Shown here in pieces: positions 22,501 through 45,829 of a stretch of DNA of 64,000 bases (positions are counted from its first letter, which is position 1; each line of letters opens with the position of its first letter). The translations under genes were made by a program, and so were the position numbers. The stretch comes from Candidatus Omnitrophota bacterium. GTDB lineage: Bacteria > Omnitrophota > Gorgyraeia > Gygaellales > Profunditerraquicolaceae. A model generated the notes under the pieces. The model had not been told where the DNA came from. It was given only the letters and a program-made list of their open reading frames with translations, and made no database searches. Location: NCBI GenBank assembly GCA_041661605.1, contig JBAZUE010000001.1, positions 798,928 through 862,927 on the forward strand, written 5' to 3'.

Positions 22501-24088
22501 TGGAATCTATAGGAGGATTAGTTACCTGAGCGAAAAGTTGTTTAAAATAACTATAAAGCATCTGCGGCTTCTTAGACAAAAAAGGATGCGGTATATCACA
22601 GCCCATAGAGCCCACAGGCTCCTTGCCTTCTTCGGCCATGGGCTTTATAACCATTTTTAAATCTTCCCTTGAATAACCAAAACTCTTAAGCCGCGTTATT
22701 AAATCTTTAGACTGACTGCCGCCGGCGCCGCTTTCAGGCAGCTTATCCAAATCGAGCATATTTTCCGAGTTCCATTTTCCATACGCGGAGCGTCCGGATA
22801 CAGCTTCTTTAATCTCGGAATCCTTGATTATGCGGCCGGATTTAGTATCAATGAAAAACATCTTACCAGGCTCAAGCCTGCCGGAAACTTTGATATCCTC
22901 AGGGGCTATATCCAAAACCCCTACTTCCGATGCCATTACCACAAAATCTTTTTTTGTCACAATATAGCGGGCAGGACGTAAACCATTCCTGTCCAGGATC
23001 GCGCCGATGTTTTTGCCGTCTGTAAAAGCAACCGCCGCCGGGCCGTCCCAAGGCTCCATAAAACAGGCGTGATATTTATAAAAATCAGCCAGGTTACGGC
23101 TCATAAGCTTATCATGCTCCCAGGCAGCAGGAATCAGCATCATCATGGCGTGCTCAAGAGACCTGCCGGATAGAGCCAAAAGCTCAAACAAGTTATCCAG
23201 CGCTGCGGAGTCGCTCCCTCCTTCAACTATGATCGGCTTTAACTTTTCTATATCCTTGCCGAATAGCTCGCTTGCAAGCAAACGTTCCCTGGCCCTGACT
23301 CCATTGATGTTACCGCGCAAGGTATTAATTTCGCCGTTATGCGCCAGGAAACGGAAAGGCTGCGCCAGATTCCAGGTAGGAAAAGTATTGGTGGAATAAC
23401 GTGAATGCACCAGGCACAAAACGCTTTTTATATCTTCGTTTTTTAAATCAAGAAAGAAATTGTCAATCTGCCTGGGCATAAGCAAGCCCTTATAAGATAA
23501 AGTACGGCAGGAGATATTGGTTATATAAAATGAATTCTTCTGTTTTAAACCGGACTCAAGTATTATATTTTCAACCCGCCTCCTGATAACATAAAGCTTT
23601 CTTTCAAAGCTCATTTCATCATCAATATCTTTATTTCTCCCGATAAAAATATGTTCGAAAACAGGCTGGGTATTTTTAGCTCCTTCCCCGATATCTGAAT
23701 CATCTATCGGGACACTTCGCCAGCCTAAAAGTGCCTGGCCCTCCTCTTTGATTATCTTCTTAAATGCCTCCTTACAAAAACTACGCTCACCGGGATCCTG
23801 GGGTAAAAAGATTAACCCCACGCCATAAGCGCCCAAATCCGGTAAATTAATATTCATACCCTGGCCTGCCGCTTTTTTGAAGAAATCATGCGGGATCTGG
23901 ATCAATATCCCCGCCCCGTCTCCTGTCTTAGGGTCTGAGCCGACTGCCCCGCGGTGTGACAGGCGATGCAAAACCTCAATCCCCTGCTTTACTATAGCAT
24001 TTGATTTCTGGCCTTTTATGTTGCAGACAAATCCTACCCCGCAGGAATCGTGCTCAAATGCAGGCTCATATAAACCTTGGGCTTTCAT
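19571..24088 (-). CDS. gltB: glutamate synthase large subunit
   Basis: 1505 aa. Ntn amidotransferase start with CGVGF, an FMN/Fe-S domain (SNTGEGGEDP, ISPPPHHDIYSIEDL) and a C-terminal GXGXG beta-helix. Confidence 0.95.
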   Translation of the reverse strand: MKAQGLYEPAFEHDSCGVGFVCNIKGQKSNAIVKQGIEVLHRLSHRGAVGSDPKTGDGAGILIQIPHDFFKKAAGQGMNINLPDLGAYGVGLIFLPQDPGERSFCKEAFKKIIKEEGQALLGWRSVPIDDSDIGEGAKNTQPVFEHIFIGRNKDIDDEMSFERKLYVIRRRVENIILESGLKQKNSFYITNISCRTLSYKGLLMPRQIDNFFLDLKNEDIKSVLCLVHSRYSTNTFPTWNLAQPFRFLAHNGEINTLRGNINGVRARERLLASELFGKDIEKLKPIIVEGGSDSAALDNLFELLALSGRSLEHAMMMLIPAAWEHDKLMSRNLADFYKYHACFMEPWDGPAAVAFTDGKNIGAILDRNGLRPARYIVTKKDFVVMASEVGVLDIAPEDIKVSGRLEPGKMFFIDTKSGRIIKDSEIKEAVSGRSAYGKWNSENMLDLDKLPESGAGGSQSKDLITRLKSFGYSREDLKMVIKPMAEEGKEPVGSMGCDIPHPFLSKKPQMLYSYFKQLFAQVTNPPIDSIREKLVMSLESFIGPERNILEETPGHSHKLMVKNPILANTEFEKIRNISVNNFKAKTVSILFKAAEGKKGFISSLERTCLETERAIEQGYSFIIISDRGADKDNISLPALLATSAVHQHLLIKAMRSQTALIVESAEPKEVHHFALLFGYGADCVNPYLAYEAVEYLSREKEINTESKAALKNYNKALSDGILKIISKMGISTLRSYRGAQIFEALGLSAEFVKKYFTGTVSRIGGVGLEGIIDETIERHRDAYAERRAGEVNLSSGGIYQWKKDGEFHLWNPESIAALQDATTNADYKRYKEFAELINNQSGNPTTLRSLLKFRKASPVSIDEVEPAENILKRFVTGAMSFGSISAGAHETIAIAMNRIGGKSNTGEGGEDPSRFIPLPNGDSKRSAIKQVASGRFGVTINYLVNADEIQIKIAQGAKPGEGGQLPGHKVSAIIAKTRYTTPGVTLISPPPHHDIYSIEDLAQLIFDLKNTNPNARVSVKLVSEAGVGTVAAGVAKGHADMILISGGDGGTGASPRSSIRYAGLPWELGISETHQTLLLNNLRSRVRLQADGQMRTGRDVAIAALLGAEEYGFCSAVLIVIGCVMLRHCNLNNCSVGVATQDDILQKRFKGKAEHIVNYFHFIVDELREIMASLGLRTINEMIGRTDLLELNQEIVPAKAKGIDYSRILYKPDLPENIERYCKVKRDSGLDSVLDRKLIKMWENCIKKNEPVRFSTGINNTDRATGAMLSGEVCKKYGDGALLEDTILCKFKGIAGQSFGAFLEKGITFELEGMANDYVGKGISGGRLIVYPDSSASYKPDENIIIGNTSFYGAISGEAYINGLAGERFCVRSSGLYAVVEGVGDHGCEYMTGGRVIVLGRTGNNFAAGMSGGIAYVYDEDATFKERCNLDMVELEKVKDSDKDTICNLLSNHFKYTKSGKARKILDNIQDQLKKFVKVMPLEYKRILEGAKVEKKLDVAEELDG

Positions 24089-24333
24089 GTCTTAACCTCT
24101 CTTAAAGAAATCCCCAGCTTTTTGATTTTAGCGCGCAAGGTATTTCTGTTTATACCCAGCAACCTGGCAGCCTTTATCTGATTGCCAAAAGTTATAATTA
24201 AGGTATTCGTAATCAATGATTTATCCAATGCATCCAACATTATATGATAGATCTTTCCTTCTTTGCCCTTTAGAAAGATCCGGTCTAACTCCAAAAGCGC
24301 TTTTTCTATTTCTCTTGCCTCTTCATCCATCAT
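24085..24333 (-). CDS. Fis-family small DNA-binding protein
   Basis: 82 aa. IYHIMLDALDKSLITNTLIITFGNQIKAARLLGINRNTLRAKIKKLGI parallels the E. coli Fis C-terminal half (LYELVLAEVEQPLL...[25 protein letters not shown]). Its TGA overlaps the gltB ATG as ATGA. Confidence 0.75.
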   Translation of the reverse strand: MMDEEAREIEKALLELDRIFLKGKEGKIYHIMLDALDKSLITNTLIITFGNQIKAARLLGINRNTLRAKIKKLGISLREVKT

Positions 24334-24360: not shown

Positions 24361-24394
24361 TTTATAAAAGCGCGCCTCGACAAGAGGCGCGCTT
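24361..24394 (-). terminator. intrinsic terminator after glnN
   Basis: 11-bp GC-rich stem aagcgcgcctc / gaggcgcgctt with a 5-nt loop, followed on the minus strand by TTTTAT. Confidence 0.75.
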
Positions 24395-26641: not shown

Positions 26642-26695
26642 ATTCAAAAACAAACAGAGGCATTCTCATTAGTTATCGAGGAGAACGCCTCTGTT
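26642..26695 (-). terminator. intrinsic-terminator hairpin in the glnK1-glnN intergenic leader
   Basis: 15-bp stem with one mismatch (26653-26667 / 26681-26695), followed on the minus strand by TTTGTTTTT. It is ~100 nt after the glnK1 stop and ~45 nt before the glnN ATG. Confidence 0.65.
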
Positions 26696-26752
26696 CTCTT
26701 ACTTACATTGCTTAAAATTAAGCCATAAGATGCCTATAAATTAACTCACTAA

Positions 26753-26786
26753 TAATACAAGTAAGAAATAACCGGGTTTGGTAACC
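26753..26786 (-). promoter_or_regulatory. conserved 34-nt bipartite box, copy 1 (upstream of glnN)
   Basis: Plus strand TAATACAAGTAAG-N13-TGGTAACC. Minus strand GGTTACCA-N13-CTTACTTGTATTA. It lies 155 nt from the glnN ATG. Confidence 0.6.
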
Positions 26787-26790
26787 AATT

Positions 26791-28372: not shown

Positions 28373-28388
28373 AAATCCTCCTGAATTT

Positions 28389-28420
28389 ATTTACACAACT
28401 GGTTAACCAATTGTGTAAAT
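28389..28420. promoter_or_regulatory. 32-bp near-perfect palindrome immediately upstream of the amt (27146-28372) RBS
   Basis: atttacacaaCtggttaaccaAttgtgtaaat, with 15 of 16 symmetric pairs. The right half, ttaaccaattgtgtaaa, recurs at 30205-30221 upstream of the second amt. Confidence 0.55.
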
Positions 28421-28424
28421 ACCG

Positions 28425-28474
28425 GATAAAAGAAAAGGCGCTCATAACAGCCTTTTAAGCTGCTATGAGCGCCT
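28425..28474 (-). terminator. intrinsic-terminator hairpin in the glnK2-amt1 intergenic leader
   Basis: Perfect 11-bp stem aggcgctcata / tatgagcgcct (28436-28446 / 28464-28474), followed on the minus strand by TTTTCTTTT. Confidence 0.65.
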
Positions 28475-28520
28475 ACAGTGCGCTATATAACTATAAACAC
28501 TACCTTGTGCCTAAGCTTAC

Positions 28521-28554
28521 TAATACAAGTAAGAGAGAAGCTAACCTGGTAACC
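28521..28554 (-). promoter_or_regulatory. conserved 34-nt bipartite box, copy 2 (upstream of amt-glnK)
   Basis: Plus strand TAATACAAGTAAG-N13-TGGTAACC, 149 nt from the amt ATG. Confidence 0.6.
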
Positions 28555-28564
28555 ATTAATTTAA

Positions 28565-30168: not shown

Positions 30169-30259
30169 TACCTTCCTCCTTTTTTTGTTAAAAGATACTC
30201 TTGATTAACCAATTGTGTAAAATCAAACTAAAAAAAGCCTGTCTTTCTCCTTCAAGCCC

Positions 30260-30439
30260 TTAATCTATGTTCAATTTTTCTTTAACCAACCGCGCGTAAA
30301 CCTTGTTTATCCGTCTTGTCTGCAGCCATCTCTCTATGGTAGTAATTTGAATATCTAGTTTCTTAGACAAATCATACAGGGTATAACCATTTTCCTCTTT
30401 TAACCGCAGTATTTTCCGGATTAATTCATTATCTATCAT
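30260..30439 (-). CDS. small helix-turn-helix protein (59 aa), not in the supplied ORF track
   Basis: My minus-strand translation is MIDNELIRKILRLKEENGYTLYDLSKKLDIQITTIERWLQTRRINKVYARLVKEKLNID*. GYTLYDLSKKLDIQITTIERWL is HTH-like. The ATG lies 6 nt after the glnK3 stop. No obvious SD. Confidence 0.5.
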   Translation of the reverse strand: MIDNELIRKILRLKEENGYTLYDLSKKLDIQITTIERWLQTRRINKVYARLVKEKLNID

Positions 30440-32442: not shown

Positions 32443-33246
32443 TCAAAAGTTAATATCCAGTTGGAAGGTAATCGTATCAGTAAGATTGCGATTATTATAA
32501 ATATCATAAGCAAGTATTGCCGAAATATCCTTGGTAAAACTCCAGGCAAAACCTGCATTCAAAGCGCCATAGGAAGACTGCGTACCCTGATAATCAACGC
32601 ACAGCCACAATTTATCGCTAATCTCTGTCATTGTGCGCTCCCAGGCTACCATTGGACCAGCATTATCCCGCAAACCTTGCTTATCTCTAAGCAACCTTCC
32701 GTTACCCACAAAATAACCGCCCGAAACTCTTCCCAGATTAACCTTACCTACATTAACTGTTTTGGCAATCCTGCCATACCAAACATTATTATTGGTTCTA
32801 TTGGCCCTTGTGCCCATATCGTATGAGCCAACTGCAATAGCGGGCATATCTTTAAAATAAGCGCCCTCAGGTACTCCTAACTTAAAATGAAAATACCAGG
32901 GAGTCGAATCATAAAATGATCCTAAGCCTTTTTTATAATCAAATCCTGTTTCAGCCATAATCTTGCCTAATGGATACCATAATTTACCAAGCAGATTCTC
33001 CTCCTGTTTATCAGATAAAAGACTAAAAGTCGGGCCCCAAACCTGCAAAACATAGTTATGCTGATCATAATTATCAGCATTGGTACCTTTGCTGGTTGTA
33101 GGAGCATAAATATCGTATCCTATATGGATCTTCTTATAGGGCTGGATATCGGTAGACGGAGCCCAAATAAGCGTTGAAGGGGTGGCATATACATTAGATA
33201 AAACAAAAGTAAAGAAAACCGCTAAAATCAATCTAATTCGCTTCAC
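32443..33246 (-). CDS. putative outer-membrane beta-barrel (porin-like) protein
   Basis: I chose the GTG start at 33246 (AAGGAGAG upstream), which gives the signal peptide (M)KRIRLILAVFFTFVLSNVYA. The sequence has alternating beta-strand character and ends in the C-terminal F of LDINF. Its stop is 23 nt upstream of the amt3 start. Confidence 0.45.
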   Translation of the reverse strand: MKRIRLILAVFFTFVLSNVYATPSTLIWAPSTDIQPYKKIHIGYDIYAPTTSKGTNADNYDQHNYVLQVWGPTFSLLSDKQEENLLGKLWYPLGKIMAETGFDYKKGLGSFYDSTPWYFHFKLGVPEGAYFKDMPAIAVGSYDMGTRANRTNNNVWYGRIAKTVNVGKVNLGRVSGGYFVGNGRLLRDKQGLRDNAGPMVAWERTMTEISDKLWLCVDYQGTQSSYGALNAGFAWSFTKDISAILAYDIYNNRNLTDTITFQLDINF

Positions 33247-33260
33247 TGTCTCTCTCCTTC

Positions 33261-33318
33261 CCAATAAAAAAGCGTCTTTTAGAATCCATCTTGGATTAAG
33301 AAAGACGCCTGCGTCTTT
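33261..33318 (-). promoter_or_regulatory. candidate terminator/antiterminator element in the OMP-amt3 leader
   Basis: On the minus strand AAAGACGC (33318-33311), GCGTCTTT (33308-33301) and AAAGACGC (33279-33272), followed by TTTTTT. The middle segment can pair with either flank. Confidence 0.45.
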
Positions 33319-33320
33319 TG

Positions 33321-33354
33321 AAAACAAAAAAAGCGTTCTATTCTTATAGAACGC
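33321..33354 (-). terminator. intrinsic-terminator hairpin downstream of the sigma gene, in the OMP-amt3 leader
   Basis: 9-bp stem gcgttctat / atagaacgc (33333-33341 / 33346-33354), followed on the minus strand by TTTTTTTGTTTT. Confidence 0.65.
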
Positions 33355-33390
33355 CTATGTTTAATTCTTACACTTCAATGTGCCCTACAT

Positions 33391-33424
33391 TAATACAAGT
33401 AAAGAATGCTTGAAACTGGTAACT
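33391..33424 (-). promoter_or_regulatory. conserved 34-nt bipartite box, copy 3 (upstream of OMP-amt-glnK)
   Basis: Plus strand TAATACAAGTAAA-N13-TGGTAACT. It overlaps the sigma-gene stop codon and lies 145 nt from the GTG at 33246. Confidence 0.55.
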
Positions 33425-33947
33425 AAATCTTATCCAGGTGCTTTTGAGACTTGGCCCTGATCTTGCGCATCATCTTTACTACGCTGACATGGGATACACT
33501 CATACGCCTGCCTATATCCCTGGTAGTCAACCCCTGGCTGAAATAAGTAAGCAGCCTTTTTTCTCTTGGATTAAAACCATTATCCCTGATGCTTTGAGCT
33601 AAAAGTTTATTATGCAAATCCTGCCGGCAATCCGGGCAAGCCCAATATTCACCAAGGACATCCTCCATAGTTGCCTCATCATCAGTATTCAAGGCAGCAT
33701 CCATACTGATAATATTTGAACGCTCATTAATTTTGCGTATATAGTTCTTCAGGTGGAAATAACATCCTTGCAAAATATAGCTGTCTGTTTTATCGCCAAG
33801 CTTACCCTCCAAGAAACTGCTCCAAAGATGGATTGTCGCCTCTTGATATAGATCATCATGATTAAACGACCGGTAATGCCCGTTTAGCCGGTAAGCAATC
33901 CTTTTTATGGTTGGCGATAACTTTTGGTACAACTCTTCAAAACACAT
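33423..33947 (-). CDS. sigma-70 family RNA polymerase sigma factor (small, ECF-like, regions 2 and 4 only)
   Basis: 174 aa. The region-2-like segment is DDLYQEATIHLW...YILQGCYFHLKNYIRK. The region-4 HTH is REKRLLTYFSQGLTTRDIGRRMSVSHVSVVKMMRKIRAK. Confidence 0.7.
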   Translation of the reverse strand: MCFEELYQKLSPTIKRIAYRLNGHYRSFNHDDLYQEATIHLWSSFLEGKLGDKTDSYILQGCYFHLKNYIRKINERSNIISMDAALNTDDEATMEDVLGEYWACPDCRQDLHNKLLAQSIRDNGFNPREKRLLTYFSQGLTTRDIGRRMSVSHVSVVKMMRKIRAKSQKHLDKI

Positions 33948-44896: not shown

Positions 44897-45829
44897 TTAT
44901 TTGTTTGTTATCTGCTTGGTATCCCGTATATCCGTCAGGCGCTGGTTAACTTTATCAAAACGTTTTTCGGCATCGGCATACTTGGTATTGGCATTAAGCA
45001 GATGGCTGCCCAGGATATCAAAATCTTCCTTAAATTTATCTGTTTCTATAGAAAGAGCGCCTAAGCTTTTTAAAATCACCTTTGCGTTCTCTTCGACTTT
45101 TAATCCGCGCAGGCCCATGCAGATTACCTGCAGATAGGCGTAAAAAGTATTCGGGGAAACCGGGATCACTTTCTTCAGCATGCTGTAAGAAAAGATATCC
45201 TCTTTGATAAATACCTCATAATAAACATTCTCCGCCGGTATATACATCAGGGCAAAATCATAAGTATTTTCCGCCGGCAAAATGTATTTTGCGGCGATCT
45301 CATTGATACGGTTTTTTACATCCTGGATGAATTTCTTGCGCAAGACTTCTTTTGTTTGCTCATCCGCGGCATCCTGCATCCTTTGAAAATTCTCCAAACT
45401 AAATTTCGCGTCCACCGGGACCAGCCGTTCCCCCAGGCAGATTACCGCATCCACGGCGTCCGTACTTTTAAAACGGTATTGTGTATGATAATGTTCCTTA
45501 GGCAAAACCTGGGAAAGTAAATTTTCCAGCAAAGTTTCTCCCATTGCCCCGCGGAATTTAGGAGCGCGCAGAAGCTCCTGAAGACTGGAGATATCCTTAC
45601 TTATGGCGATTATCTGCTTATTGGTCTCCTCTAATTTTCCCAACTGCTCCTTTACGCTGCCAAAAGCAGAAGTGGCGCTGCCTAAATTCTGCCCGATGAT
45701 TTTATTGGCCTCCTGGATAGACTGATTCATCTGGTTCAAGCGCTCATTGACTTGAGAGGAGATCTTCAAAACCACAGAGACGATAAATGCGGCTAATATT
45801 AAAAATAAAATCGCGATTAAAATAATCAT
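44897..45829 (-). CDS. rmuC: DNA recombination protein RmuC
   Basis: 310 aa. N-terminal TM helix, a coiled coil, then the RmuC nuclease-like region (VDAVI.....VPVDAKF ... ALMYIPAE). Confidence 0.7.
   Translation of the reverse strand: MIILIAILFLILAAFIVSVVLKISSQVNERLNQMNQSIQEANKIIGQNLGSATSAFGSVKEQLGKLEETNKQIIAISKDISSLQELLRAPKFRGAMGETLLENLLSQVLPKEHYHTQYRFKSTDAVDAVICLGERLVPVDAKFSLENFQRMQDAADEQTKEVLRKKFIQDVKNRINEIAAKYILPAENTYDFALMYIPAENVYYEVFIKEDIFSYSMLKKVIPVSPNTFYAYLQVICMGLRGLKVEENAKVILKSLGALSIETDKFKEDFDILGSHLLNANTKYADAEKRFDKVNQRLTDIRDTKQITNK

Follow-up and report, generated by a model that had tools for sequence, protein, structure and literature searches.

The window considered here (the whole stretch of DNA that was analyzed, 64,000 nucleotides) belongs to an uncultivated Omnitrophota bacterium, whose nearest species-level relatives are likewise Omnitrophota; Amt1 shows 100% identity to a protein cluster with this annotation on a 922,655-bp contig, and the Amt identity with its closest GTDB relative (L002) is 74%. 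On the minus strand, the locus encodes, in this order, an ECF-type sigma factor (33947-33423), a porin-like OMP, an Amt protein of 523 aa, P-II, a 59-aa HTH ORF, Amt2, and P-II, followed by the amt1 leader, Amt1, P-II, GS type III, a Fis-like ORF (82 aa), GltB, and GltD. The whole intergenic region preceding amt1 has a predicted folding energy of -70.1 kcal/mol (z = -8.1 versus shuffles), and its features are collected in Table 1 together with those of the sister leaders.

As for the neighboring genes, the 59-aa HTH ORF (30261-30439, minus strand), located between P-II and amt2, is called as a 58-aa gene at the same position in L201 and in L206-L212. The 82-aa Fis-family HTH ORF (24085-24333, minus strand) overlaps the start of gltB and resembles the C terminus of NtrC; its homologues are the first gene behind the promoter-like box described below in 8 related loci, and in the window it has no box and is preceded by a plain terminator (24368-24394). 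The 267-aa OMP (32443-33246, minus strand) presents a signal peptide and gave no match in Pfam or NCBIfam. In 13 related loci, the gene of a homologue comes first after the box, always adjoining amt, and the protein may serve as a specific porin for the uptake of ammonium.

Table 1. Features of the amt1 leader, of its sister leaders, and of the adjoining sigma factor gene (positions in the window)
Feature	Position	Strand	Details
ECF-type sigma-70 family gene	33423..33947	-	stop codon overlaps box copy 1
Box core, copy 1	33394-33423	-	before OMP
Sister leader 1 (OMP-amt operon)	33266..33425	-	box 33423-33394; terminator 33356-33331
Second attenuator of the OMP leader	33266-33318	-	AAGAC-GCAGGC-GUCUU plus terminator ending at ~33266; overlaps second terminator
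Box copy 2, GGTTACCAGGTTAGCTTCTCTCTTACTTGTATTA	28554-28521 (feature 28521..28555)	-	promoter-like; 10 nt 3' of the P-II stop codon
Box core, copy 2	28524-28553	-	before amt1
Parts of box copy 2	28553-28547; 28532-28521	-	GTTACCA; 14 nt; TTACTTGTATTA
P1 hairpin	28489..28517	-	from fold; lower stem reaches 28517/28489
P1 core	28510-28507; 28506-28501; 28500-28497	-	GCAC; hexaloop AAGGUA; GUGU
Linker from P1 core to P2, UUAUAGUUAUAU	28485..28496	-	12 nt; read from sequence
P2 antiterminator hairpin	28464..28487	-	from sequence and fold
Parts of P2	28484-28480; 28479-28473; 28472-28468	-	AGCGC; 7-nt loop ACUGUAG; GCGCU
Local extension of P2	28487-28485; 28466-28464	-	UAU pairs with AUA across bulged C 28467; 3 pairs
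Intrinsic terminator	28428..28474	-	stem 28474-28436, U-tract to 28428
Hairpin 3, AUUUACACAAUUGG-UUAA-CCAGUUGUGUAAAU	28389..28420	-	14 bp; between terminator and Shine-Dalgarno
Shine-Dalgarno AGGAGG of amt1	28382-28377	-	read from sequence
ATG of amt1	28372-28370	-	read from sequence
Box core, copy 3	26756-26785	-	before glnA
Sister leader 3 (GS type III)	26645..26787	-	box 26785-26756; terminator 26695-26653 plus U-tract

Downstream of the box, the amt1 leader contains two tandem short stem-loops (P1, 28510-28497, and P2, 28484-28468), the second of which overlaps an intrinsic terminator, and this is the arrangement by which ANTAR targets are recognized. The original prediction had noticed a short similarity between the amt1 and the OMP leaders; the similarity is real (aggcacaaggtagtgt at 28512-28497 versus gggcacattgaagtgt at 33385-33370), but rather than plain sequence similarity, it reflects a conserved hairpin, P1, with 4 bp and a hexaloop carrying A in the first position and G in the fourth position (A1 and G4). 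The P2 loop features A1 and G4 like that of P1, even though it is 7 nt long and can be considered a hexaloop only if one G is bulged.

The terminator stem comprises 18 pairs (9 G-C and 2 G.U) and is capped by a loop of 3 nt; UUUUCUUUU comes next. The perfect 11-bp terminator with U-tract proposed earlier is a genuine terminator, but those 11 bp are just the lower part of the 18-bp stem. Since the 3' arm of P2 (GCGCU, 28472-28468) lies inside the 5' arm of the terminator (28474-28457), the two folds are mutually exclusive, as had been predicted. As long as the terminator lacks its 3' arm, the nascent RNA has P1 plus P2 as its minimum-energy fold. With P2 imposed on the fold, the terminator is reduced to its upper 11 bp, and 9 unpaired nucleotides separate them from the U-tract. 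The antiterminator is about 24 kcal/mol weaker than its competitor: the completed terminator alone (-30.6 kcal/mol) beats P2 alone (-6.9 kcal/mol), so that P2 would need a stabilizing factor.

To evaluate the conservation of this arrangement, we considered a set of 10 distinct amt1-type leaders, with P2 in the form AGCGC-A.UG..G-GCGCY, 6 of which were found via Amt1 homologues and not via the motif. The structure proves to be conserved in related genomes, so that the refutation outlined in the original prediction, which required the lack of such conservation, does not apply. In the terminator, 91.5% of the cells are paired and 9 of the 18 pairs are changed on both sides in a compensatory manner; in P1, 92.9% of the cells are paired. 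The 4-bp GCGC/GCGC core of P2 does not vary, and the loop positions A1, U3, and G4 vary hardly or not at all; the P2 stem, being invariant in these leaders, is without covariation support of its own. The antiterminator described earlier as 5 bp, a bulge, and 3 bp is present in the window, but only its 4-bp core is conserved, the fifth pair and the 3-bp extension being specific to this genome and its closest relatives. The P2 loop is 7 nt long in 9 of the 10 leaders. G4 occurs in all 9 P1 loops and in 9 of the 10 P2 loops, the exception being L093, with U at this position of P2, and the first position of the P1 loop features the replacement of A with G in 4 of 9 cases.

Between the terminator and the Shine-Dalgarno sequence, hairpin 3 is kept in 10 of 10 amt1-type leaders, with 85% of the cells paired, and the deviations in its core helix are nearly all G.U pairs on the sense strand. 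The same stretch can alternatively be read as a CARTTG-N6-CARTTG DNA repeat flanked by TTACA/TGTAA. It may act as an RNA element or as an operator, perhaps of the neighboring 59-aa HTH protein. A half copy of the element is present before amt2 (30202-30222), near the 59-aa HTH ORF, and L201 has two copies (L201:2227-2245 and L201:2399-2430), one preceding the box and the other following the terminator.

The position of a strong terminator after a P-II gene could also mark an ordinary operon boundary, with the hairpin ending the amt2-P-II transcript and amt1 being transcribed from a promoter of its own, without conditional read-through. Hairpin 3, located 3' of the terminator, contains a TTTACA-N18-TGTAAA arrangement that could be a weak sigma-70 promoter, and the homologous amt2 site scores 9/12. 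However, we consider this explanation unlikely, since in all the leaders collected the terminator is preceded, and not followed, by the conserved box, and the same design is also found ahead of genes that open an operon, e.g., before OMP, which comes after the sigma gene. Moreover, the 5' GCGC strand and the loop bases of P2 are outside the terminator and yet invariant in the 10 leaders, whereas the neighboring linker varies, and P1 is conserved with covariation.

The design of the amt1 leader is common to three nitrogen operons of the window (OMP-amt, amt1, and glnA type III) and to more than 100 related leaders, which bears out the suggestion of an attenuator shared among the nitrogen operons. 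The OMP leader presents P1 (GCAC-AUUGAA-GUGU), 8 nt, P2 (AAC-AUAGGC-GUU), and then the terminator. Its second attenuator has G instead of A in the first loop position and no P1 of its own; a second tandem unit of this kind is common to many related leaders. The presence of this second attenuator implies that the start of OMP is the GTG at 33244 and not the TTG of the mechanical ORF. In the glnA leader, P2 (GAGAAC-AGAGGC-GUUCUC, 26698-26681) overlaps the terminator, and no convincing P1 was found in this leader. A covariance model (R1), built from 18 short-linker leaders of the commoner type with the window sequences excluded, recovered the OMP leader (33346-33385, E = 5e-10) and the glnA leader (26680-26713, E = 0.025). 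In the amt1 leader, R1 matched only P1 (E = 3.1), which indicates that this leader is a divergent subtype, assigned to the family by its features and not by the model score. A weak match of the model at 45052-45083 on the minus strand (E = 0.38), inside a 310-aa ORF, is probably due to chance.

The wider set of leaders was obtained by a metagenome scan with the box pattern, together with the loci collected earlier, and comprises at least 142 distinct box-plus-leader sequences from Omnitrophota MAGs and metagenomes. Hairpins with an A1/G4 hexaloop occur at least once in 118 of the 132 analyzable leaders and at least twice in 80 of them; the corresponding numbers are 46 and 12 for the reverse complement and about 48 and about 10 for the shuffles. 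These counts and those that follow for P2 and P1 refer to phylogenetically related sequences and are thus not independent events. When P2 was anchored by sequence alone (NNNGGCGU), the two inner pairs were paired in 98% of the cases and the third and fourth pairs covaried, with GAAC/GUUC 27 times, AGAC/GUCU 10 times, and mixed stems twice; the covariation score of 0.248, compared with 0.192 in shuffles, was reached by none of 500 shuffles and was above all slid controls. Furthermore, when P1 was anchored only on the closing pair and the loop G, three further pairs were found in 75% of the sites, versus 9% in control DNA, with covarying stems (GCAC/GUGC, 32; ACAC/GUGU, 27; GCAC/GUGU, 12; ACGC/GCGU, 3). 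The P1 loops vary at positions 2, 3, 5, and 6. In the commoner leader type of the regulon, P2 carries true hexaloops (AGAGGC and similar), and the linker between P1 and P2 in the other leaders of the regulon ranges from 0 to more than 40 nt. L002 carries one box ahead of P-II-Amt-P-II and another ahead of GS-III, and behind each of them come P1 (GCAC-AAGGAU-GUGC and GGCAC-AUCGUU-GUGCC, respectively), P2 (AAGAC-AGAGGC-GUCUU and GAAC-AGAGGC-GUUC), and a terminator.

Among the matches listed, the genes behind the leaders are GS-III (26), amt (18), P-II (13), OMP (13), and Fis-gltB (8), the remainder being unassigned or on short contigs. Since a promoter-like box is followed by a strong terminator within about 90 nt, and terminated leaders can double as small RNAs in other bacteria, it is conceivable that the element is the gene of a trans-acting small RNA of about 90 nt and that its position before amt1 is incidental. 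This is very improbable, given that the downstream ORF, where assignable, nearly always serves nitrogen assimilation and shares the orientation of the leader, that the sequence outside the hairpins is poorly conserved, and that many leaders have two attenuators in tandem, which is sensible for control in cis. A small RNA could nonetheless be a second role of the leader beside ANTAR attenuation, compatible with it and not needed.

The box that had been placed upstream of the amt1 leader is indeed there, to be read on the minus strand from 28554 to 28521. Its core, GTTACCA-N14-TTACTTGTA, occurs in the window in three exact copies, all on the minus strand and all intergenic, and no fourth copy was found in the 64-kb window even when up to 3 mismatches were allowed; with the same tolerance, the chance expectation is 0.37, and three copies were reached in 2 of 100 shuffles. 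All 16 fixed bases of the box can be read in 5 of the 6 amt1-type leaders that were found via Amt1 homologues and not via the motif. We infer that the box is a promoter. This is supported by a relative (L001) in which the hairpins and tandem terminators lie behind an ordinary TTGACA-N17-TATAGT promoter that takes the place of the box.

The sigma gene of the window, coding for 174 aa, matches Sigma70_r2 in Pfam and TIGR02937 (46.2 bits versus a cutoff of 42.9). Among the matches listed, 48 of 142 leaders have a gene for a homologue of this ECF-type sigma factor immediately before the box, ending 3 to 15 nt from it. Because of this arrangement, the box may be the sigma factor's own promoter type, that is, the cognate promoter of the ECF-type sigma factor whose gene adjoins it.

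Other readings of the box were considered and discarded. It lacks a -35 element at 16 to 18 nt from TAWWA, as required for a sigma-70 promoter; proper TTGACA-N16-TATATT promoters exist in this organism, e.g., before the sigma gene. A sigma-54 promoter, either in the box or in the sequence GGCAC-N-GTGT, is at odds with the GG/GC spacing (GG-N10-GC) in every copy, as read from the sequence. Finally, the hairpin formed in the fold by CUUAC, in the 3' half of the box, and a downstream GUAAG was not accepted as evidence that the box is transcribed, given that its box strand is constant and that L001 shows a similar UGUAA in the same place behind an ordinary sigma-70 promoter.

As regards the factor acting on the leader, no ANTAR gene was detected in the 64-kb window with a regular expression and with an HMM built from four ANTAR ORFs of the fetched loci, and the best 120 GAF-ANTAR clusters include none listed on the 922,655-bp contig. 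Within 0.66 Mb of box-carrying metagenome loci, 18 ANTAR ORFs were found, and the 10 of them that were analyzed with Pfam all turned out to be GAF-ANTAR or GAF-GAF-ANTAR proteins; L002 also encodes a GAF-ANTAR protein. In 12 loci, the gene order is GAF-ANTAR, an interval of 0 to 2.5 kb, sigma, box, and nitrogen genes, and in one locus, the GAF-ANTAR gene itself is the first behind the box. The Omnitrophota GAF-ANTAR protein is 84 to 100% identical over the best 120 clusters; its ANTAR part matches Rv1626, EutV, and NasR, and its GAF part is nearest to the GAF domains of NifA, Nlh1, and PtsP. This protein (e.g., the 239-aa product of L160:3835-4554, and clusters) is annotated as "histidine kinase" or "PdtaR" by several sources.

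That leaders of this kind are genomically linked to GAF-ANTAR genes suggests that the regulator of the amt1 leader is likely the Omnitrophota GAF-ANTAR protein, which the genome of the window presumably encodes and which would bind the leader RNA. The GAF domains of NifA and PtsP are sensors of nitrogen status (2-oxoglutarate and glutamine). Given that the GAF domain of the Omnitrophota protein is nearest to these sensors, the putative ligand could be of the same kind, and the leaders would be open under nitrogen limitation. We know of no characterized GAF-ANTAR member.

A ligand or P-II had been proposed as the effector instead. The presence of alternative terminator and antiterminator folds before nitrogen genes and the absence of a regulator gene from the window would agree with a metabolite riboswitch, responding for example to glutamine or 2-oxoglutarate, or with an RNA bound by P-II, in either case without an ANTAR protein. 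We consider such an effector highly unlikely. What is conserved of the RNA amounts to just two mini-hairpins of 4 bp each, whose loops are largely variable and whose linker differs in both length and sequence, and an RNA so small and variable would offer no pocket-forming architecture; moreover, no Rfam family is matched even at E <= 10, P-II is not known to us to bind RNA, and GAF-ANTAR genes are tightly linked to the leaders. The A1/G4 two-hairpin signature and this linkage, together with the energetic disadvantage of the antiterminator, point to an ANTAR protein.

The ANTAR target motif has been described as two mini-hairpins with A1/G4 hexaloops, separated by a linker of 5 to 12 nt, with P2 overlapping a terminator (PMC3369931, PMC8934654), and in the EutV structure, G4 makes a specific contact, whereas A1 does not (Walshe et al. 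2022, PMC8934654). The amt1 leader has A1 and G4 in both loops, the terminator overlap, and a linker of 12 nt, at the upper limit of that range. The same A1/G4 mini-hairpins, short linker, and competition of P2 with a terminator are found in the known ANTAR-target RNAs, such as those of EutV/eut of Enterococcus faecalis, NasR/nasF, and AmiR/ami. ANTAR RNAs have been reported upstream of genes for P-II, the ammonium transporter, GS, and glutamate synthase (Ramesh et al. 2012, PMC3369931); the predicted leaders of Desulfotomaculum, Pelobacter, and others stand before P-II, amt, GS, and GOGAT genes, so that the amt1 leader resembles them also in its association with nitrogen assimilation (PMC3369931, PMC8934654). 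Known ANTAR RNAs and the amt1 family are alike in having several copies per nitrogen gene cluster, also between cistrons. Based on these features, the amt1 leader most probably works like, and is, an ANTAR-target leader, and we hold with good confidence that it represents an ANTAR-type, protein-dependent transcription attenuator.

According to this interpretation, transcription would enter the leader from the box or by read-through from the amt2-P-II genes, which is possible because no terminator lies in between. The nascent RNA would fold first into P1, with its AAGGUA loop, and then, 12 nt on, into P2, with its ACUGUAG loop. Once the terminator's 3' arm has been made, the weak P2 would give way to the 18-bp stem, and transcription would end in the U-tract, some 90 nt after its start. 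A dimeric ANTAR antiterminator holding both loops would instead allow P2 to sequester the GC-rich base of the terminator; the 11-bp upper stem would then be left 9 nt from the U-tract, and RNA polymerase would read into amt1 and P-II. Read-through is expected to be switched on under nitrogen limitation.

Different from the known ANTAR RNAs, the P2 loop of the amt1 leader has 7 nt. The known ANTAR systems rely on REC-ANTAR (EutV, NasT), NIT-ANTAR (NasR), or AmiR proteins, whereas the linked regulator is here a one-component GAF-ANTAR protein; further differences are the Omnitrophota host and the promoter-like box of fixed form that precedes each leader and is linked to the gene of an ECF-type sigma factor. 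A close parallel is offered by a deltaproteobacterial MAG (L007), where an amt leader has a 200-aa ANTAR ORF about 4 kb upstream and presents GAUAC-AUCGUC-GUAUC, an 11-nt linker, and GGC-AAAGGC-GCC overlapping the terminator GGCGCCCUC...GAGGGCG-UUUUU. The logic and the GGCGC terminator base are the same in the two leaders, but in L007 both loops are true hexaloops and the box is missing. In Klebsiella, NasR/nasF is under two-level control, with a sigma-54/NtrC promoter and an ANTAR attenuator (review PMC12591593). A similar succession of a dedicated nitrogen-responsive promoter and an ANTAR-controlled terminator is proposed for the amt1 leader, with the difference that the nasF promoter depends on sigma-54 and the box does not have the GG-N10-GC spacing. 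Rfam gave nothing at the gathering score in the whole window, nothing in 28373-28564 at E <= 10, and nothing relevant in the 26- to 34-kb region at E <= 10, and in the literature, we found no link between Omnitrophota and ANTAR.

It is possible to hypothesize, although we regard this as rather doubtful, that Omnitrophota control their whole ammonium-assimilation regulon by an undescribed two-layer circuit, in which an ECF-type sigma factor acts at its own GTTACCA-N14-TTACTTGTA promoter and a GAF-ANTAR protein acts as antiterminator, with an extra layer specific to amt1. In such a circuit, the sigma gene would run right up to the first copy of the promoter that its product targets, and the GAF-ANTAR protein would read 2-oxoglutarate or glutamine directly and release the one or two tandem terminators of each operon; the variant 7-nt P2 loop of amt1 and hairpin 3 (or the CARTTG repeat) would represent the gene-specific layer. 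To our knowledge, the only ANTAR attenuators with a known sensing half are those of receiver-domain, NIT, and AmiC-type systems.

The leaders described here constitute a large natural data set from an uncultivated phylum, with more than 140 members in which both stems covary and the loops are constrained mainly at positions 1 and 4. They are connected with one highly conserved GAF-ANTAR protein and with a box of fixed form beside the gene of an ECF-type sigma factor. The ligand of the GAF-ANTAR protein, its acceptance of 7-nt loops, and the wiring of nitrogen control in Omnitrophota can be addressed with recombinant protein and synthetic RNA. As far as annotation is concerned, these leaders account for the "terminators" found before nitrogen genes in Omnitrophota MAGs.
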